IMG/VR virus record: IMGVR_UViG_2778261161_000006
Span: 1-10,424 of that record
Strand: one strand, 5' to 3'
Length of the DNA: 10,424 nt
Source: a virus
Taxonomy: Duplodnaviria > Heunggongvirae > Uroviricota > Caudoviricetes
A program made the translations under genes and the position numbers. A model generated the notes under the pieces. The model did not search any database. It had not been told where the DNA came from and saw only the letters and a program-made list of their open reading frames with translations. Below are positions 3,938-10,424 of this stretch, piece by piece. How positions within the stretch are numbered: the stretch's first letter is position 1; each line of letters opens with the position of its first letter.

Positions 3938-4227
3938 GGTGTTATTCCCGATGCTTTTTGAAGTTCGCAGAATCGTATGTGTAGAAAATTAAACAAACCC
4001 TAAACAATGAGTTGAAATTTCATATTGTTAATATTTATTAATGTATGTCAGGTGCGATGAATCGTCATTGTATTCCCGGATTAACTATGTCCACAGCCCT
4101 GACGGGGAACTTCTCTGCGGGAGTGTCCGGGAATAATTAAAAACGATGCACACAGGGTTTAGCGCGTACACGTATTGCATTATGCCAACGCCCCGGTGCT
4201 GACACGGAAGAAACCGGACGTTATGAT

Positions 4228-4638
4228 TTAGCGTGGAAAGATTTGTGTAGTGTTCTGAATGCTCTCAGTAAATAGTAATGAATTATCAAAGGTATAGTAA
4301 TATCTTTTATGTTCGTGGATATTTGTAACCCATCGGAAAACTCCTGCTTTAGCAAGATTTTCCCTGTATTGCTGAAATGTGATTTCTCTTGATTTCAACC
4401 TATCAAAGGACGTTTCTATAAGATGCGTATTTCTTGAGAATTTAACATTTACAACCTTTTTAAGTCCTTTTATTAACACAGTGTTATCGTTTTCTAACAC
4501 AATGTGAATATTATCTGTGGCTAGATAGTAAATATAATGTGAGACATTGTGACGTTTTAGTTCAGAATAAAACAATTCACAGTTTAAATCTTTTCGCACT
4601 TGATCGAATATTTCTTTAAAAATGGCAACCTGAGCCAT
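4228..4638 (-). CDS. ybcV: Hypothetical protein YbcV (DUF1398-type), 136 aa; AT-rich cargo gene
   Basis: ORF open to 4761 (177 aa), but the internal ATG at 4638 is preceded by GGAAGG about 9 nt upstream and gives the 136-aa form I recall for K-12 YbcV. Strongly AT-rich compared with the flanking lambda-like DNA. Confidence 0.7.
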
Positions 4639-4923
4639 TGGTAAAACCTTCCATGTGATACGAGGGCGCGTAGTTTGCATTATCGTTTTTATCGTTTCAA
4701 TCTGGTCTGACCTCTTTGTGTTTTGTTGATGATTTATGTCAAATATTAGGAATGTTTTCAATTAATAGTATTGGTTGTGTAACAAAGTGCGGTCCTGCTG
4801 GCATTCTGGAGGGAAATACAACCGACAGATGTATGTAAGGCCAACGTGCTCAAATCTTCATACAGAAAGATTTGAAGTAATATTTTAACCGCTAGATGAA
4901 GAGCAAGCGCATGGAGCGACAAA

Positions 4924-5130
4924 ATGAATAAAGAACAATCTGCTGATGATCCCTCCGTGGATCTGATTCGTGTAAAAAATATGCTTAATAGCACCATTTC
5001 TATGAGTTACCCTGATGTTGTAATTGCATGTATAGAACATAAGGTGTCTCTGGAAGCATTCAGGGCAATTGAGGCAGCGTTGGTGAAGCACGATAATAAT
5101 ATGAAGGATTATTCCCTGGTGGTTGACTGA
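4924..5130 (+). CDS. ybcW: Small hypothetical protein YbcW, 68 aa
   Basis: ATG at 4924 preceded by GGAG (4911-4914). 68-aa ORF in the position and of the length I recall for DLP12 ybcW. Divergent from ybcV. No recognisable domain. Confidence 0.6.
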
Positions 5131-5294
5131 TCACCATAACTGCTAATCATTCAAACTACTTAACCTGTGACAGAGCCAACACGCAGTCTGTCACTGTCAG
5201 GAAAGTGGTAAAACTGCAACTCAATTACTGCAATGCCCTCGTAATTAAGTGAATTTACAATATCGTCCTGTTCGGAGGGAAGAACGCGGGATGT

Positions 5295-5489
5295 TCATTC
5301 TTCATCACTTTTAATTGATGTATATGCTCTCTTTTCTGACGTTAGCCTCCGACGGCAGGCTTCAATGACCCAGGCTGAGAAATTCCCGGACCCTTTTTGA
5401 TCAAGAGCGATGTTAATTTGTTCAATCATTTGGTTAGGAAAGCGGATGTTGCGGGTTGTTGTTCTGCGGGTTCTGTTCTTCGTTGACAT
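5295..5489 (-). CDS. ylcI: Small basic protein with predicted ribbon-helix-helix fold (YlcI-like), 64 aa
   Basis: Basic N-terminal tail (KNRTRRTTTR) followed by a beta-strand/helix/helix pattern NIRFPNQMIEQINIALDQKGSGNFSAWVIEACRRRL, typical of Arc/MetJ/CopG regulators. Lies in DNA that matches the lambda right end as I recall it. Confidence 0.55.
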   Translation of the reverse strand: MSTKNRTRRTTTRNIRFPNQMIEQINIALDQKGSGNFSAWVIEACRRRLTSEKRAYTSIKSDEE

Positions 5490-5688
5490 GAGGTTGCCCC
5501 GTATTCAGTGTCGCTGATTTGTATTGTCTGAAGTTGTTTTTACGTTAAGTTGATGCGGATCAATTAATACGATACCTGCGTCATAATTGATTATTTGACG
5601 TGGTTTGATGGCGTAGATGCACGTTGTGACATGTAGATGATAATTATTATCATTTTGCGGGTCCTTTCCGGCGATCCGACAGGTTACG

Positions 5689-5700
5689 GGGCGGCGACCT
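5689..5700 (+). other. cosN: lambda cohesive-end sequence GGGCGGCGACCT (terminase nicking site)
   Basis: Exact 12-nt lambda cohesive-end sequence, flanked on both sides by sequence matching the lambda genome termini as I recall them (…CCGACAGGTTACG | GGGCGGCGACCTCGCGGGTTTTCGCTATTTATGAAAATTTTCCGG…). Confidence 0.9.
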
Positions 5701-5739: not shown

Positions 5740-5856
5740 GCATTTCCGTTCTTCTTCGTCGTAACTTAATGTTTTTATTTAAAATACCCCCTGAAAAGAA
5801 AGGAAACGACAGGTGCTGAAAACGAGCTTTTGGGCCTCTGTCGTTTCCTTTCTCTG
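5740..5856 (+). promoter_or_regulatory. cosB: terminase small-subunit binding region (R3, IHF site I1, R2, R1)
   Basis: R3-like CATTTCCGTTCTTCTTCG (5741-5758). AT-rich I1-like stretch (about 5768-5786). R2 GAAAGGAAACGACAGG (5798-5813) and R1 CTGTCGTTTCCTTTC (5838-5852) form a 15-nt inverted repeat. Positioned between cosN and the Nu1 start, as in lambda. Confidence 0.75.
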
Positions 5857-5877
5857 TTTTTGGCCGTGGAATGAACA

Positions 5878-6423
5878 ATGGAAGTCAACAAAAAGCAGCT
5901 GGCTGACATTTTCGGTGCGAGTATCCGTACCATTCAGAACTGGCAGGAACAGGGAATGCCCGTTCTGCGAGGCGGTGGCAAGGGTAATGAGGTGCTTTAT
6001 GACTCTGCCGCCGTTATAAGATGGTATGCCGAAAGGGATGCTGAAATTGAGAACGAAAAGCTGCGCCGGGAAGTTGAAGAACTGCGGCAGGCCAGCGAGA
6101 CAGATCTCCAGCCAGGGACTATTGAGTACGAACGCCATCGACTTACGCGTGCGCAGGCCGACGCACAGGAGTTGAAAAATGCCAGAGACTCCGCTGAAGT
6201 GGTGGAAACCGCATTCTGTACTTTCGTGCTGTCGCGGATCGCAGGTGAAATTGCCAGTATTCTCGACGGGATCCCCCTGTCGGTGCAGCGGCGTTTTCCG
6301 GAACTGGAAAACCGACATGTTGATTTCCTGAAACGGGATATCATCAAAGCCATGAACAAAGCAGCCGCGCTGGATGAACTGATACCGGGGTTGCTGAGTG
6401 AATATATCGAACAGTCAGGTTAA
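5878..6423 (+). CDS. nohD: Terminase small subunit Nu1, 181 aa
   Basis: MEVNKKQLADIFGASIRTIQNWQEQGMPVLRGGGKGNEV… (winged helix-turn-helix N-terminus) is near-identical to lambda Nu1 as recalled. 3' end overlaps the A start, as in lambda. Confidence 0.93.
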   Translation: MEVNKKQLADIFGASIRTIQNWQEQGMPVLRGGGKGNEVLYDSAAVIRWYAERDAEIENEKLRREVEELRQASETDLQPGTIEYERHRLTRAQADAQELKNARDSAEVVETAFCTFVLSRIAGEIASILDGIPLSVQRRFPELENRHVDFLKRDIIKAMNKAAALDELIPGLLSEYIEQSG

Positions 6424-7501
6424 CAGGCTGCGGCATTTTGTCCGCGCCGGGCTTCGCTCACTGTTCAGGCCGGAGCCACAGACCGCCGTTGAATGGGCGG
6501 ATGCTAATTACTATCTCCCGAAAGAATCCGCATACCAGGAAGGGCGCTGGGAAACACTGCCCTTTCAGCGGGCCATCATGAATGCGATGGGCAGCGACTA
6601 CATCCGTGAGGTGAATGTGGTGAAGTCTGCCCGTGTCGGTTATTCCAAAATGCTGCTGGGTGTTTATGCCTACTTTATAGAGCATAAGCAGCGCAACACA
6701 CTTATCTGGTTGCCGACGGATGGTGATGCCGAGAACTTTATGAAAACCCACGTTGAGCCGACCATCCGCGATATTCCGTCGCTGCTGGCGCTGGCTCCGT
6801 GGTATGGCAAAAAGCACCGGGATAACACGCTCACTATGAAGCGTTTTTCCAATGGTCGTGGCTTCTGGTGCCTGGGCGGTAAAGCGGCAAAAAACTACCG
6901 TGAAAAGTCGGTGGATGTGGCGGGTTATGATGAACTTGCTGCCTTTGATGAGGATATTGAACAGGAAGGCTCTCCGACGTTCCTTGGCGACAAACGTATT
7001 GAAGGCTCGGTCTGGCCAAAGTCCATCCGTGGCTCCACGCCCAAAGTGAGAGGCACCTGCCAGATTGAGCGTGCAGCCAGTGAATCCCCGCATTTTATGC
7101 GTTTTCATGTTGCCTGCCCGCACTGCGGGGAGGAGCAGTATCTTAAATTTGGCGACAAAGAGACGCCGTTTGGCCTCAAATGGACGCCGGATGACCCCTC
7201 CAGCGTGTTTTATCTCTGCGAGCATAATGCCTGCGTCATCCGCCAGCAGGAGCTGGACTTTACTGATGCCCGTTATATCTGCGAAAAGACCGGGATCTGG
7301 ACCCGTGATGGCATTCTCTGGTTTTCGTCATCCGGTGTGACCGTGGAAACGGCCCGCCGCATTCTGGCAGCTGCACCACAGAGTGCACAGGCGCGCAGTG
7401 ACACTGCGCTGGATCGTCTGATGCAGGGGGCACCGGCACCGCTGGCTGCAGGTAACCCGGCATCTGATGCCGTTAACGATTTGCTGAACACACCAGTGTA
7501 A
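6398..7501 (+). pseudogene. A: Truncated terminase large subunit A (N-terminal ~313 aa) fused to ~54 codons from the 3' end of the gene preceding D (C/Nu3 region); deletion remnant
   Basis: MNISNSQVNRLRHFVRAGLRSLF… through …GILWFSSSG matches lambda gpA N-terminal half as recalled. Lambda A is about 641 aa, whereas this ORF is 367 aa. After the junction near 7336 the sequence (VTVETARRILAAAPQ…NDLLNTPV) is not gpA and runs straight into the D RBS. Confidence 0.85.
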
Positions 7502-7510
7502 GGGATGTTT

Positions 7511-7843
7511 ATGACGAGCAAAGAAACCTTTACCCATTACCAGCCGCTGGGCAACAGTGACCCGGCACATACGGCAACCGCGCCCGGCGGATTGAGTGCG
7601 AAAGCGCCTACAATGACCCCGCTGATGCTGGACACCTCCACCCGTAAGCTGGTTGTGTGGGATGGCACCACCGACGGTGCTGCCGTTGGCATTCTGGCGG
7701 TTGCTGCTGACCAGACCAGCACCACGCTGACGTTCTACAAGTCCGGCACGTTCCGTTATGAGGATGTGCTCTGGCCGGAGGCTGCCAGCGACGAGACGAA
7801 AAAGCGGACCGCGTTTGCCGGAACGGCAATCAGCATCGTTTAA
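7511..7843 (+). CDS. D: Head decoration protein D, intact, 110 aa
   Basis: [27 protein letters not shown]…TAISIV is near-identical to lambda gpD as recalled. RBS AAGGGA 5 nt upstream of ATG 7511. Confidence 0.92.
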
Positions 7844-7860
7844 CCTTACCCTTCATCACT

Positions 7861-7887
7861 AAAGGCCGCCTGTGCGGCTTTTTTTAC
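7861..7887 (+). terminator. Hairpin plus T-tract in the D-E intergenic region (intrinsic terminator/attenuator-like)
   Basis: AAAGGCCGCCTGTGCGGCTTTTTTT: GCCGC/GCGGC stem with flanking A/T pairing, followed by 7 T. Confidence 0.5.
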
Positions 7888-7898
7888 GGGATTTTTTT

Positions 7899-8405
7899 AT
7901 GTCGATGTACACAACCGCCCAGCTGCTGGCGGCAAATGAGAAGAAATTTAAGTTTGATCCGCTGTTTCTGCGTCTCTTTTTCCGTGAGAGCTATCCCTTC
8001 ACCACGGAGAAAGTCTATCTCTCACAAATTCCGGGACTGGTAAACATGGCGCTGTACGTTTCGCCGATTGTTTCCGGTGAGGTTATCCGCTCCCGTGGCG
8101 GCTCCACCTCTGAATTTACACCGGGATATGTCAAGCCGAAGCATGAGGTGAATCCGCAGATGACCCTGCGTCGCCTGCCGGATGAAGATCCACAGAATCT
8201 GGCGGACCCGGCTTACCGCCGCCGTCGCATCATCCTGCAGAACATGCGAGACGAAGAGCTGGCCATTGCTCAGGTCGAAGAGATGCAGGCCGTTTCTGCC
8301 GTGCTTAAGGGCAAATATACCATGACCGGTGAAGCCTTCGATCCGGTTGAAGTGGATAGAGGTCTTTTTAGAAGAAGGTCTCTCCGTTACTGCACCTGCT
8401 TCTGA
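7899..8405 (+). pseudogene. E: Truncated major capsid protein E (first ~153 codons of 341) followed by 15 out-of-context codons and a stop; deletion remnant
   Basis: MSMYTTAQLLAANEKKFKFDPLFLRLFFRESYPFTTEKVYLSQIPGLVNMALYV…EAFDPVEVD matches the lambda gpE N-terminus as recalled, then diverges at 8358 ([15 protein letters not shown]). Confidence 0.88.
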
Positions 8406-9840
8406 TTATATTGTTGCTGAAACGACTTATAAATTTGGCGCAACTGATCCTTATTCTGAATCAGTTGCGGTAAATTTAATTTTAGATTTTAAACAAGGTA
8501 ATGGATTTTATAGTTCGTATCCTGTTTTGAGTAAGTCAGACATTAGCGGGAATAAGATTTACGCTAATGATGAAGTTATTGTCCGTAGTCAGAACGCGTT
8601 AAGGATGATTGCAGGTGATTACGGTGTCATATGGCGAAATGATGGAGCAAATACTTACTTGCTCATGACTGATAAAGGCGACCAGTACGGTGGCTGGAAC
8701 GGTCTTCGACCATTTGCAGTAAATAACGCAACAGGTGAAGTGACGATCAATACATCACTTAATTCTCCTAAGGGGATTAAGGGAAATTCTGATACAGCTA
8801 CGAAACTTCAGACAGCAATAAAAATATCTGGTGTTTCGTTTGATGGTTCTACTGATATCACTTTAACCGCTGCGCATGTTGCTGCTTTTGCCAGAAGAGC
8901 AACGGATACGTATGCCGATGCGGATGGGGGCGTTCCCTGGAATGCCGAATCAGGCGCTTACAATGTCACTCGCTCTGGCGACAGCTATATTCTGGTTAAC
9001 TTCTATACCGGAGTCGGAAGTTGCCGGACCTTGCAGATGAAGGCGCATTACAGAAATGGTGGTCTGTTCTACCGTTCTTCAAGAGACGGTTATGGTTTTG
9101 AGGATGACTGGGCAGAAGTTTATACCTCGAAAAATCTTCCACCAGAAAGCTACCCAGTCGGCGCACCAATCCCGTGGCCATCAGATACCGTTCCGTCTGG
9201 TTATGCCCTGATGCAGGGGCAGACTTTTGACAAATCTGCCTACCCGAAACTTGCAGTCGCTTATCCGTCAGGCGTGATCCCTGATATGCGTGGCTGGACG
9301 ATTAAGGGCAAGCCCGCCAGTGGTCGTGCCGTATTGTCTCAGGAACAGGACGGCATTAAATCGCACACTCACAGCGCCAGCGCATCCAGTACGGATTTGG
9401 GTACGAAAACCACATCGTCGTTTGATTACGGCACTAAATCCACGAATAACACCGGGGCGCATACGCACAGTCTGAGCGGCTCTACAAGCTCGGCCGGAGC
9501 ACACTCGCACGTTGATGGTCGCAGGTTTAATACAAGCACTTTTAAAGACACCTATCAGTATGGTTCTACAGCTGTCGGAAGTAACTCATACCAGGTACAA
9601 GGGGCGGTTGGTCTGGGCATTGGCACGATGGCGAATACGAACTCTGCTGGCGCGCATACCCACTCACTGTCCGGCACTGCTGCAAGCGCAGGTGCACACG
9701 CACATACTGTCGGTATTGGTGCTCATACGCACTCCGTTGCGATTGGCTCACATGGACACACCATCACCGTTAACGCTGCTGGTAACGCGGAAAACACCGT
9801 CAAAAACATCGCATTTAACTATATTGTGAGGCTTGCATAA
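8359..9840 (+). pseudogene. stf: 5'-truncated side tail fibre gene (stf-like): non-lambda AT-rich central domain plus lambda Stf / T4 gp37-like C-terminal His-box domain
   Basis: Continuous frame from the junction to the stop, with no credible start of its own (the GTG at 8329 lies inside the E remnant in another frame). C-terminal ~230 aa ([71 protein letters not shown]…[11 protein letters not shown]) match lambda Stf as recalled. Confidence 0.8.
9361..9770 (+). repeat. Internal repeated His-box (HxH) motifs of the tail-fibre distal domain
   Basis: Repeated GAHTHSLSG(S/T)…AGAH(S/A)[18 protein letters not shown] and [11 protein letters not shown] segments within the stf-like ORF. Confidence 0.6.
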
Positions 9841-10424
9841 TGGCATTCAGAATGAGTGAACAAGCACGGACCATAAAAATTTATAATCTGCTGGCCGGAA
9901 CTAATGAATTTATTGGTGAAGGTGATGCATATATTCCGCCTCATACAGGTCTGCCAGCAAACAGTACCGATATTGCACCACCAGATATTCCTGCTGGCTT
10001 TGTGGCTGTTTTCAACAGTGATGAGGCATCGTGGCATCTCGTTGAAGACCATCGGGGTAAAACGGTTTATGACGTAGCGTCAGGGGACGCGTTATTTATT
10101 TCTGAACTCGGTCCGTTACCGGAAAATGTTACCTGGTTATCGCCGGAAGGGGAGTTTCAGAAGTGGAACGGCACAGCCTGGGTGAAAGATGCAGAAGCAG
10201 AAAAACTGTTCCGGATCCGGGAGGCGGAAGAAACAAAAAACAGCCTGATGCAGGTAGCCAGTGAGCATATTGCGCCACTTCAGGATGCTGTAGATCTGGA
10301 AATCGCAACGGAGGAAGAAACCTCATTGCTGGAAGCCTGGAAAAAGTATCGGGTGTTGCTGAACCGTGTTGATACATCAACTGCACCTGATATTGAGTGG
10401 CCTACGAACCCTGTCAGGGAGTAA
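9840..10424 (+). CDS. tfa: Tail fibre assembly protein Tfa, intact, 194 aa
   Basis: [54 protein letters not shown]… is near-identical to lambda Tfa as recalled. Start overlaps the stf stop (TAATG). Stop at 10422-10424. Confidence 0.9.

Follow-up and report, generated by a model that had tools for sequence, protein, structure and literature searches.

The window, by which we mean the whole stretch of 10,424 nucleotides that was analysed, comes from an E. coli lambdoid prophage with deletions, of which it spans the right end and the cos region. Its genes follow the order porin gene, S-R-Rz/Rz1 lysis genes, bor, ybcV, ybcW, ylcI, cosQ/cosN, Nu1 and truncated terminase A, and around ylcI the DNA shares 97.5% identity with the right end of lambda. 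The features of the ylcI locus are collected in Table 1.

Table 1. Features at and around ylcI in the window (RHH, ribbon-helix-helix; AF2, AlphaFold2).
Feature	Position	Strand	Description and basis
ybcV-type DUF1398 gene	4228-4761	-	
ybcW	4924-5130	+	convergent with ylcI
Hairpin between convergent ybcW and ylcI	5167-5194		folding z-scores as RNA: plus strand -2.6, minus strand -0.6
ylcI coding sequence	5295-5489	-	64 aa and stop, ATG start; DUF3950 / YlcI-YnfO member; ORF list, Pfam, NCBIfam, PHROG, K-12 b4589, dN/dS
Pfam DUF3950 stretch, codons 21-49	5343-5429	-	helix A, turn and start of helix B; nearly invariant NFSAWV-EAC motif
Predicted RHH beta-strand, codons 13-17 (RNIRF)	5439-5453	-	I15, R16 and F17 invariant or nearly so; extended in the AF2 model
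N-terminal arm, codons 1-12 (MSTKNRTRRTTT)	5454-5489	-	basic, Ser/Thr-rich; read from the sequence
GGGG, Shine-Dalgarno-like run	5497-5500	-	7 nt 5' of the ylcI ATG; putative, from the sequence
Inverted repeat ATCAATTAATACG / CGTCATAATTGAT	5559-5591		70-102 nt 5' of ylcI; repeat search; sole upstream inverted repeat; candidate operator
cosQ GGGTCCT	5659-5665	+	neighbouring packaging site, presumed from lambda; context
cosN GGGCGGCGACCT	5689-5700	+	exact match

The product of ylcI is the protein MSTKNRTRRTTTRNIRFPNQMIEQINIALDQKGSGNFSAWVIEACRRRLTSEKRAYTSIKSDEE. Six of its residues 1-16 are Arg or Lys, and the basic N-terminal tail described in an earlier note on this DNA is thus present. The same note had placed a 64-residue ORF on the opposite strand at about 200 bp from cosN, and the distance between the start codon and cosN is in fact exactly 200 bp. 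The gene is divergent from Nu1 (5878-6423, plus strand), with cos lying between the two.

Among the marks by which a moron, an independent cargo gene in a late operon, may be recognised, ylcI displays the opposite orientation and a downstream hairpin, which may be a terminator-type element judging from its location between convergent genes. A consensus promoter search of the strand that encodes ylcI found no sigma-70-like promoter 5' of the gene. The K-12 copy is transcribed, since an RNA-seq survey lists ybcW and ylcI as a convergent pair of overlapping transcripts (PMC12288877). On the plus strand, a promoter-like site (GTGACA, 16 nt, TATCAT; 10/12 matches) is found at 5624-5653, left of cosQ and directed toward cos and Nu1; it overlaps a palindrome at 5636-5651. 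Three inverted repeats, at 4850-4875, 5167-5194 and 4071-4135, had been suggested in the earlier note as places where YlcI might bind. All of them are real, but no sign of a tie to YlcI was found, and the one at 5167-5194 is the hairpin between ybcW and ylcI.

Some observations concern other parts of the prophage. It is deleted at 6398-8405, where the terminase A frame (367 aa) ends in ...NDLLNTPV, which we take to be the C-terminus of lambda C/Nu3; an in-frame fusion has therefore presumably removed W, B and most of C. An intact ORF at 7505-7843, presumably gene D, is followed by an E-like ORF, which stops being E-like after about 170 codons and runs into the tail-fibre gene (8329-9840). Inside the tail-fibre assembly gene region, a full-length match to IS009 (Rfam RF02111, 229 bits, E=3e-56) occupies 10183-10381 of the plus strand. 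The sequence ATCTGGTCTGACCTCTT at 4700-4716 is identical to a site that is reported to bind PdhR in K-12, where it lies between ybcV and ybcW. In a pdhR deletion, the mRNA levels of the two genes fall about tenfold (PMC7660256), and these cargo genes are therefore under host metabolic control.

A conserved gene of the DUF3950 family

YlcI matches Pfam DUF3950 (PF13132) over residues 21-49 with E=5.4e-20 and 71.4 bits (cut-off 25), NCBIfam YlcI_YnfO_N (NF041551) with 36.6 bits (cut-off 30), and PHROG 949, a group to which no function is assigned, with E=4e-35. The cryptic prophage DLP12 of E. coli K-12 carries the same gene, ylcI (b4589), in the shared order bor-ybcV-ybcW-ylcI-cos-nohD. These matches bear out the name that the earlier note had given to the ORF. 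The amino-acid identity between the window protein and the lambda / K-12 DLP12 type is 98%; the window and lambda proteins are one residue apart (D30 vs. E30), and the same variation is seen among other copies.

In lambda itself, the ORF occupies roughly 48109-48303 of the complementary strand (2710-2904 in our lambda locus, L001) and has no feature in NC_001416, while in some newer lambda-like records it is annotated. The gene is therefore already known and uncharacterised, its lambda copy being left out of NC_001416, and no functional study of ylcI, ynfO or DUF3950 was found in the literature searched. The neighbouring DUF1398 gene is labelled 'head protein' in NC_001416, a label that seems unfounded.

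The dN/dS ratio between the window gene and the copy of phage BP-4795, calculated on the first 52 codons, was 0.09 at dS=0.84, and values between 0.09 and 0.5 were obtained with other lambdoid copies. Past residue 50, the tail of the protein exists in three versions among phage lineages. All 42 members of a diverse set (42/42) match Pfam DUF3950, and I15, R16, F17, I25, N36, F37, S38, W40, V41, A44 and C45 are invariant or nearly so across the 42 sequences. The length of about 55-80 residues and the pattern I-R-F ... N-F-S-A-W-V-x-[ED]-A-C that characterise DUF3950 proteins are both found in YlcI. A HMMER search of 1.8 billion cluster representatives gave only 141 matches. Many of them are error-laden copies of lambda; the remainder are true homologues of YlcI-like length from Enterobacterales, with 35-60% identity. 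The family matches, the K-12 annotation, the dN/dS of 0.09 and the homologues across Enterobacterales show that ylcI is more than a chance ORF: it is a genuine conserved gene under purifying selection.

During the database searches we also observed that many genome assemblies of unrelated bacteria, among them Streptomyces, Pseudomonas, Cohnella and Flavobacterium, contain a ylcI 98% identical to that of lambda, and so do hundreds of ENA contigs of about 3.5 kb (L083-L112, L121 and L123; P0001-P0120). The genome contigs are also often about 3.5 kb long, the others being short fragments or near-full-length lambda. The presence of ylcI in these assemblies looks like contamination by lambda control DNA, and the contigs of about 3.5 kb presumably correspond to the amplicon of 3.6 kb from the right end of lambda that serves as a sequencing control. 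The error-laden lambda copies inflate the YlcI family in protein databases.

Predicted fold of YlcI

An AlphaFold2 model of the YlcI monomer was built from an alignment of 22 sequences; an RHH protein is expected to be an obligate dimer. The mean pLDDT of the model was 71.6, with values of 71-83 in the core. Residues 13-17 are extended and residues 19-32 and 37-63 form two helices, so that the model contains the strand-helix-turn-helix of about 45 residues that defines an RHH chain, and its predicted topology is the one expected for a single chain of an RHH dimer.

When the model was compared with the PDB by Foldseek, the E-values were not significant, and the largest recognisable group of matches consisted of RHH proteins, namely StnY (CopG family), NikR, Arc, CopA(SO) and TacA2, with some unrelated small helical domains alongside. 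In BFVD, where E-values were likewise not significant and most matches are unnamed, nearly all the named matches are RHH proteins or repressors. In profile searches against the PDB, the best match covering the helices was a CopG-family RHH protein (E=1.5, not significant). A Pfam scan of the 42 DUF3950 members gave no RHH family below E=0.09, a value reached by one of the 42 only. The YlcI family aligned to Arc/Mnt by hhalign with a probability of 1.2%, which is not significant; in the register of this non-significant alignment, T12, N14, R16, F17 and P18 of YlcI correspond to Q9, N11, R13, W14 and P15 of Arc, of which Q9, N11 and R13 are base-contacting residues. On purely structural grounds, YlcI very probably adopts the RHH fold; the earlier note had proposed this fold from the sequence, and the predicted structure agrees with it.

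Phage, chromosomal and satellite relatives

YlcI is encoded by 155 of 50,697 phage records, nearly all of lambda-like or Stx-converting E. coli phages. A homologue scan with one genome per species gave 80 loci, of which 44 were subjected to clustering of their neighbours. In lambda-type loci, the start of ylcI always lies 211 bp from the far end of cosN. Across the 44 loci, lambda cosN (with up to two mismatches) was found only beside the E. coli lambda-type copies and never beside satellite homologues, and cos linkage was for this reason rejected as a feature of the whole family. In Qin-type loci, a gene for the 77-residue YnfO is followed about 105 nt on, and on the same strand, by a DUF1398 gene. 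In BP-4795, ylcI lies on the opposite strand between Rz and an HNH-TerS-TerL module, with the HNH gene between ylcI and terS; because this packaging module is unrelated, it is the place of ylcI at the lysis/packaging junction that is kept, and not the flanking DNA.

Orphan copies occur in chromosomes, for example after the cytochrome bd operon in Rouxiella and between sopB and pipD in Salmonella SPI-5. In S. enterica subsp. diarizonae and arizonae (L126 and L129, 6001-6147), the DUF3950 homologue is found between the sopB/IpgD-family gene and the pipD-type peptidase C69 gene, presumably the position of a small ORF of pathogenicity island SPI-5.

At 24 loci, from about 24 species, a diverged DUF3950 homologue lies in a PICI-like island. 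The order of genes, on the basis of Pfam assignments, is integrase, AlpA, often an AntA/Rha antirepressor-type gene, the DUF3950 homologue, a small protein and primase. The homologue is the sole gene on the opposite strand, and it is placed between the AlpA/AntA module and the primase operon, from which it diverges. This context of DUF3950 homologues, in the switch region of satellites, is new here; in the literature searched, no paper mentioning DUF3950 treats that region.

The satellite intergenic region of 200 bp has a fixed layout, in which a GC-rich hairpin comes first and is followed by 12-bp GTG-N6-CAC elements. Each region contains three to four phased elements, located at about -99, -76 and -30 from the ATG, with a fourth near -147 in the loop of the hairpin. 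Their density is 17.4 per kb in the switch region as compared to 0.19 per kb in the remainder of the loci. The N6 cores vary between islands and recur within each island. In one island (L144), the only promoter-like site of the region is aimed at the primase operon, and one element lies in its spacer and another just past its -10 box. The hairpin of the primase-operon leader (GAGGCCCGG N17 CCGGGCTTC, then GCTATTT) is GC-rich and conserved (L144, 4650-4700; L139, about 5840-5890). No Rfam family matched the hairpin site in L144, L127, L139, L082 and L133, and CI/C4-like immunity RNAs (C4/isrK models), looked for with Rfam in the window as well as in five satellite loci, were absent from the switch region.

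The distance between repeat cores was compared with the identity of the proteins at residues 12 and 14, on a basis of 16-18 related loci with hand-curated cores. The two are correlated (Mantel r=0.69, p=1e-4; partial r=0.68), as compared to r=-0.16 for the remaining residues. When the alignment columns were taken singly, positions 4, 6, 11, 12 and 14 covary significantly with the repeat cores (p<=0.01), position 5 does so significantly but weakly (r=0.23), and none of the columns in the helices falls below p=0.03. The covariation links the N-terminus of the protein to the repeats and fits an operator-binding switch protein that reads DNA through its N-terminal arm and beta-strand. A 12-bp palindrome of the form GTG-N6-CAC would be equally compatible with a helix-turn-helix dimer produced from another satellite gene.

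One E. coli strain (CP027459.1; locus L166, 5590-6363 and 9576-9776) has a satellite embedded in the terL gene of a BP-4795-like helper prophage, which has a YlcI of its own beside HNH-TerS. The satellite contains two tandem DUF3950 genes, each with a separate set of repeats, namely TGGTACGTACCA in two copies and GTTTAACAC, with close variants, in about five. Two satellite members, one in CP027459 (P0256) and one relative elsewhere, combine DUF3950 with a C-terminal helix-turn-helix domain of the TerS N-terminal type (Terminase_2, E=1.6e-11 and 1.7e-6).

The surroundings of ylcI in the window are of another kind. No GTG-N6-CAC element occurs near the gene, the closest being at 7557, and no phased, repeated operator-like elements such as those of the satellite switch regions are found 5' of it. 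The candidate operator listed in Table 1 is kept in lambda-cos-type loci, where the whole cos flank is conserved. In BP-4795-type phages the repeat is missing from the surroundings of ylcI, and the DNA-reading residues of their YlcI are the same; its link to YlcI is therefore weak, and it was rejected as the YlcI operator. Two related 12-mers, at 4757 and 5308, were also discarded, as they are only weakly above chance in this A/T-rich DNA.

Proposed role and comparison with known systems

We propose that ylcI would form a transcription unit of its own, located where the lysis genes meet the cos-terminase region and antisense to the late operon of the phage. YlcI would be a small Arc-like RHH protein acting as a dimer. 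It would read the DNA major groove with its pair of beta-strands (about residues 12-17) and its basic N-terminal arms, and would regulate transcription in a sequence-specific manner, probably as a repressor. That the N-terminal arm and the beta-strand would contact DNA is what we infer from the satellite paralogues. Taken as a whole, an Arc-like RHH DNA-binding regulator with its own transcription unit is the best explanation, which we put forward with moderate confidence. The repressor role suggested in the earlier note is plausible in this light, with indirect support from the satellite paralogues, which lie behind covarying operator-like repeats.

Since many RHH proteins are antitoxins, several of the structural matches of YlcI among them, YlcI might instead be the antitoxin or autoregulator of a toxin-antitoxin or defence module, with a partner such as the DUF1398 protein YbcV. 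The same-strand succession of YnfO and DUF1398 at about 105 nt in Qin-type loci, as well as the lineage-specific tail past residue 50, would agree with such a role. In the window, however, the neighbouring ybcW is convergent and ybcV is 530 bp away; no conserved co-directional neighbour was seen in the 44 loci, and DUF1398 is absent beside the gene in BP-4795-type phages and in 24/24 satellite loci. PADLOC gave no match for YlcI, YbcW or the satellite proteins, and the match of YbcV to a type II restriction-enzyme model is weak and partial (E=2.7e-4). Moreover, the PdhR site between ybcV and ybcW and the lowered mRNA of both genes in the pdhR deletion (PMC7660256) speak against a module with YlcI. 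This explanation is highly unlikely, and the antitoxin-like regulator envisaged in the earlier note finds no place in our reading. We also regard as quite unlikely a role in DNA packaging, in which YlcI would bind near cos or contact the small terminase. Unrelated cargo genes such as bor are commonly inserted at the lysis/packaging junction, and this weakens the argument that could be drawn from the position of ylcI between the lysis and packaging modules in both lambda-type (cos-Nu1-A) and BP-4795-type (unrelated HNH-TerS-TerL) phages. A packaging role would account for the two satellite members in which DUF3950 is fused to a small-terminase N-terminal helix-turn-helix, all the more as the Rpp proteins of PICIs mimic the TerS DNA-binding domain (PMC6739421). 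Yet the satellite homologues adjoin neither lambda-type cosN nor packaging genes and sit instead in a regulatory zone, the chromosomal orphan copies have no packaging context, and in BP-4795 the HNH gene separates ylcI from terS.

A further explanation takes the phage protein as a player in the cross-talk between helper and satellite, which it would induce or block, either by binding the satellite switch operators or through mixed dimers with the RHH protein of the satellite. It appears unlikely on the whole: the DNA-reading residues of the phage protein (TTRN), or repeats matching them, occur in no sampled satellite, and the co-occurrence amounts to a single case, that of the CP027459 satellite with its two DUF3950 genes inside terL of a helper prophage with its own YlcI. 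Besides this case, cross-talk is favoured by the fact that one family is common to helper phages and satellites, and by the near invariance of the predicted dimer-core residues (IRF, NFSAWV-EAC) in phage and satellite members. In its broadest form, phage and satellite DUF3950 proteins would be one family of interchangeable RHH switch proteins, the satellite copies repressing the replication operon via the phased GTG-N6-CAC elements and the helper copy, that of lambda included, interfering at the operators or through mixed dimers. This we consider rather improbable; if true, YlcI would be a phage factor that triggers satellites or protects against them. Finally, ylcI could be an inert remnant in this defective prophage, which owes its conservation to the function that it has in active phages. 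The prophage has undergone extensive deletion, with terminase A seemingly fused to the end of C/Nu3, E truncated and most head and tail genes missing, and no promoter-like site was found 5' of ylcI. Against this, the ORF is intact and differs from lambda YlcI by the single D30/E30 variant, which is shared with other copies, and the K-12 counterpart is transcribed (PMC12288877). We regard an inert gene as quite unlikely, and an Arc-like regulator with its own transcription unit is the reading that we retain.

For the window alone, this is an ordinary result that concerns a known, uncharacterised small prophage gene. The placement of DUF3950 among the RHH regulators provides a concrete and cheap hypothesis, and the satellite result makes the DUF3950 protein of satellites a candidate for the undefined protein regulator that silences the replication genes of Gram-negative PICIs. 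If the phage and satellite copies interact, a new route of helper-satellite communication would be added.

The closest relatives of the window gene are YlcI (DLP12) and YnfO (Qin) of K-12; the window gene is the same gene, and nothing of substance differs. The prophages themselves can be told apart, as the porin gene is intact and more late genes are kept in the window than in DLP12. Compared with the RHH antitoxins of the CopG, ParD and VapB types and with plasmid copy-number repressors, YlcI differs in having no toxin partner, no operon and no match to a defence model.

With respect to satellites, the DUF3950 homologues sit between AlpA/Bro-type genes and the replication operon, in a position corresponding to the 'Bro' zone of Gram-negative PICIs and HE-PICIs and to the immunity region of P4; the window ylcI, unlike the genes of that zone, is phage-borne and not satellite-borne. 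The immunity functions of the 'Bro' zone have been credited to Bro-network genes and CI-like RNAs (PMC10111431). The likeness to Rpp of E. coli PICIs concerns the two satellite DUF3950 proteins with a C-terminal TerS helix-turn-helix and is an association only, as that domain is absent from YlcI and Rpp does not belong to the RHH proteins.

Another comparison is with Arc and Mnt of phage P22. These differ from YlcI in that there is no significant sequence similarity, ylcI lies outside the phage immunity region, and no operator was found in the window. Arc and Mnt are encoded in the immI region, between divergent promoters with repeated operators, an arrangement that resembles the one of the satellite paralogues. 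Both are small proteins of a phage in which an N-terminal arm is followed by one beta-strand and a pair of helices, as predicted for YlcI; Arc structures are among the Foldseek matches of the YlcI model, and, in the non-significant hhalign register, the N-L-R-W-P of Arc has its counterpart in the N-I-R-F-P of YlcI.
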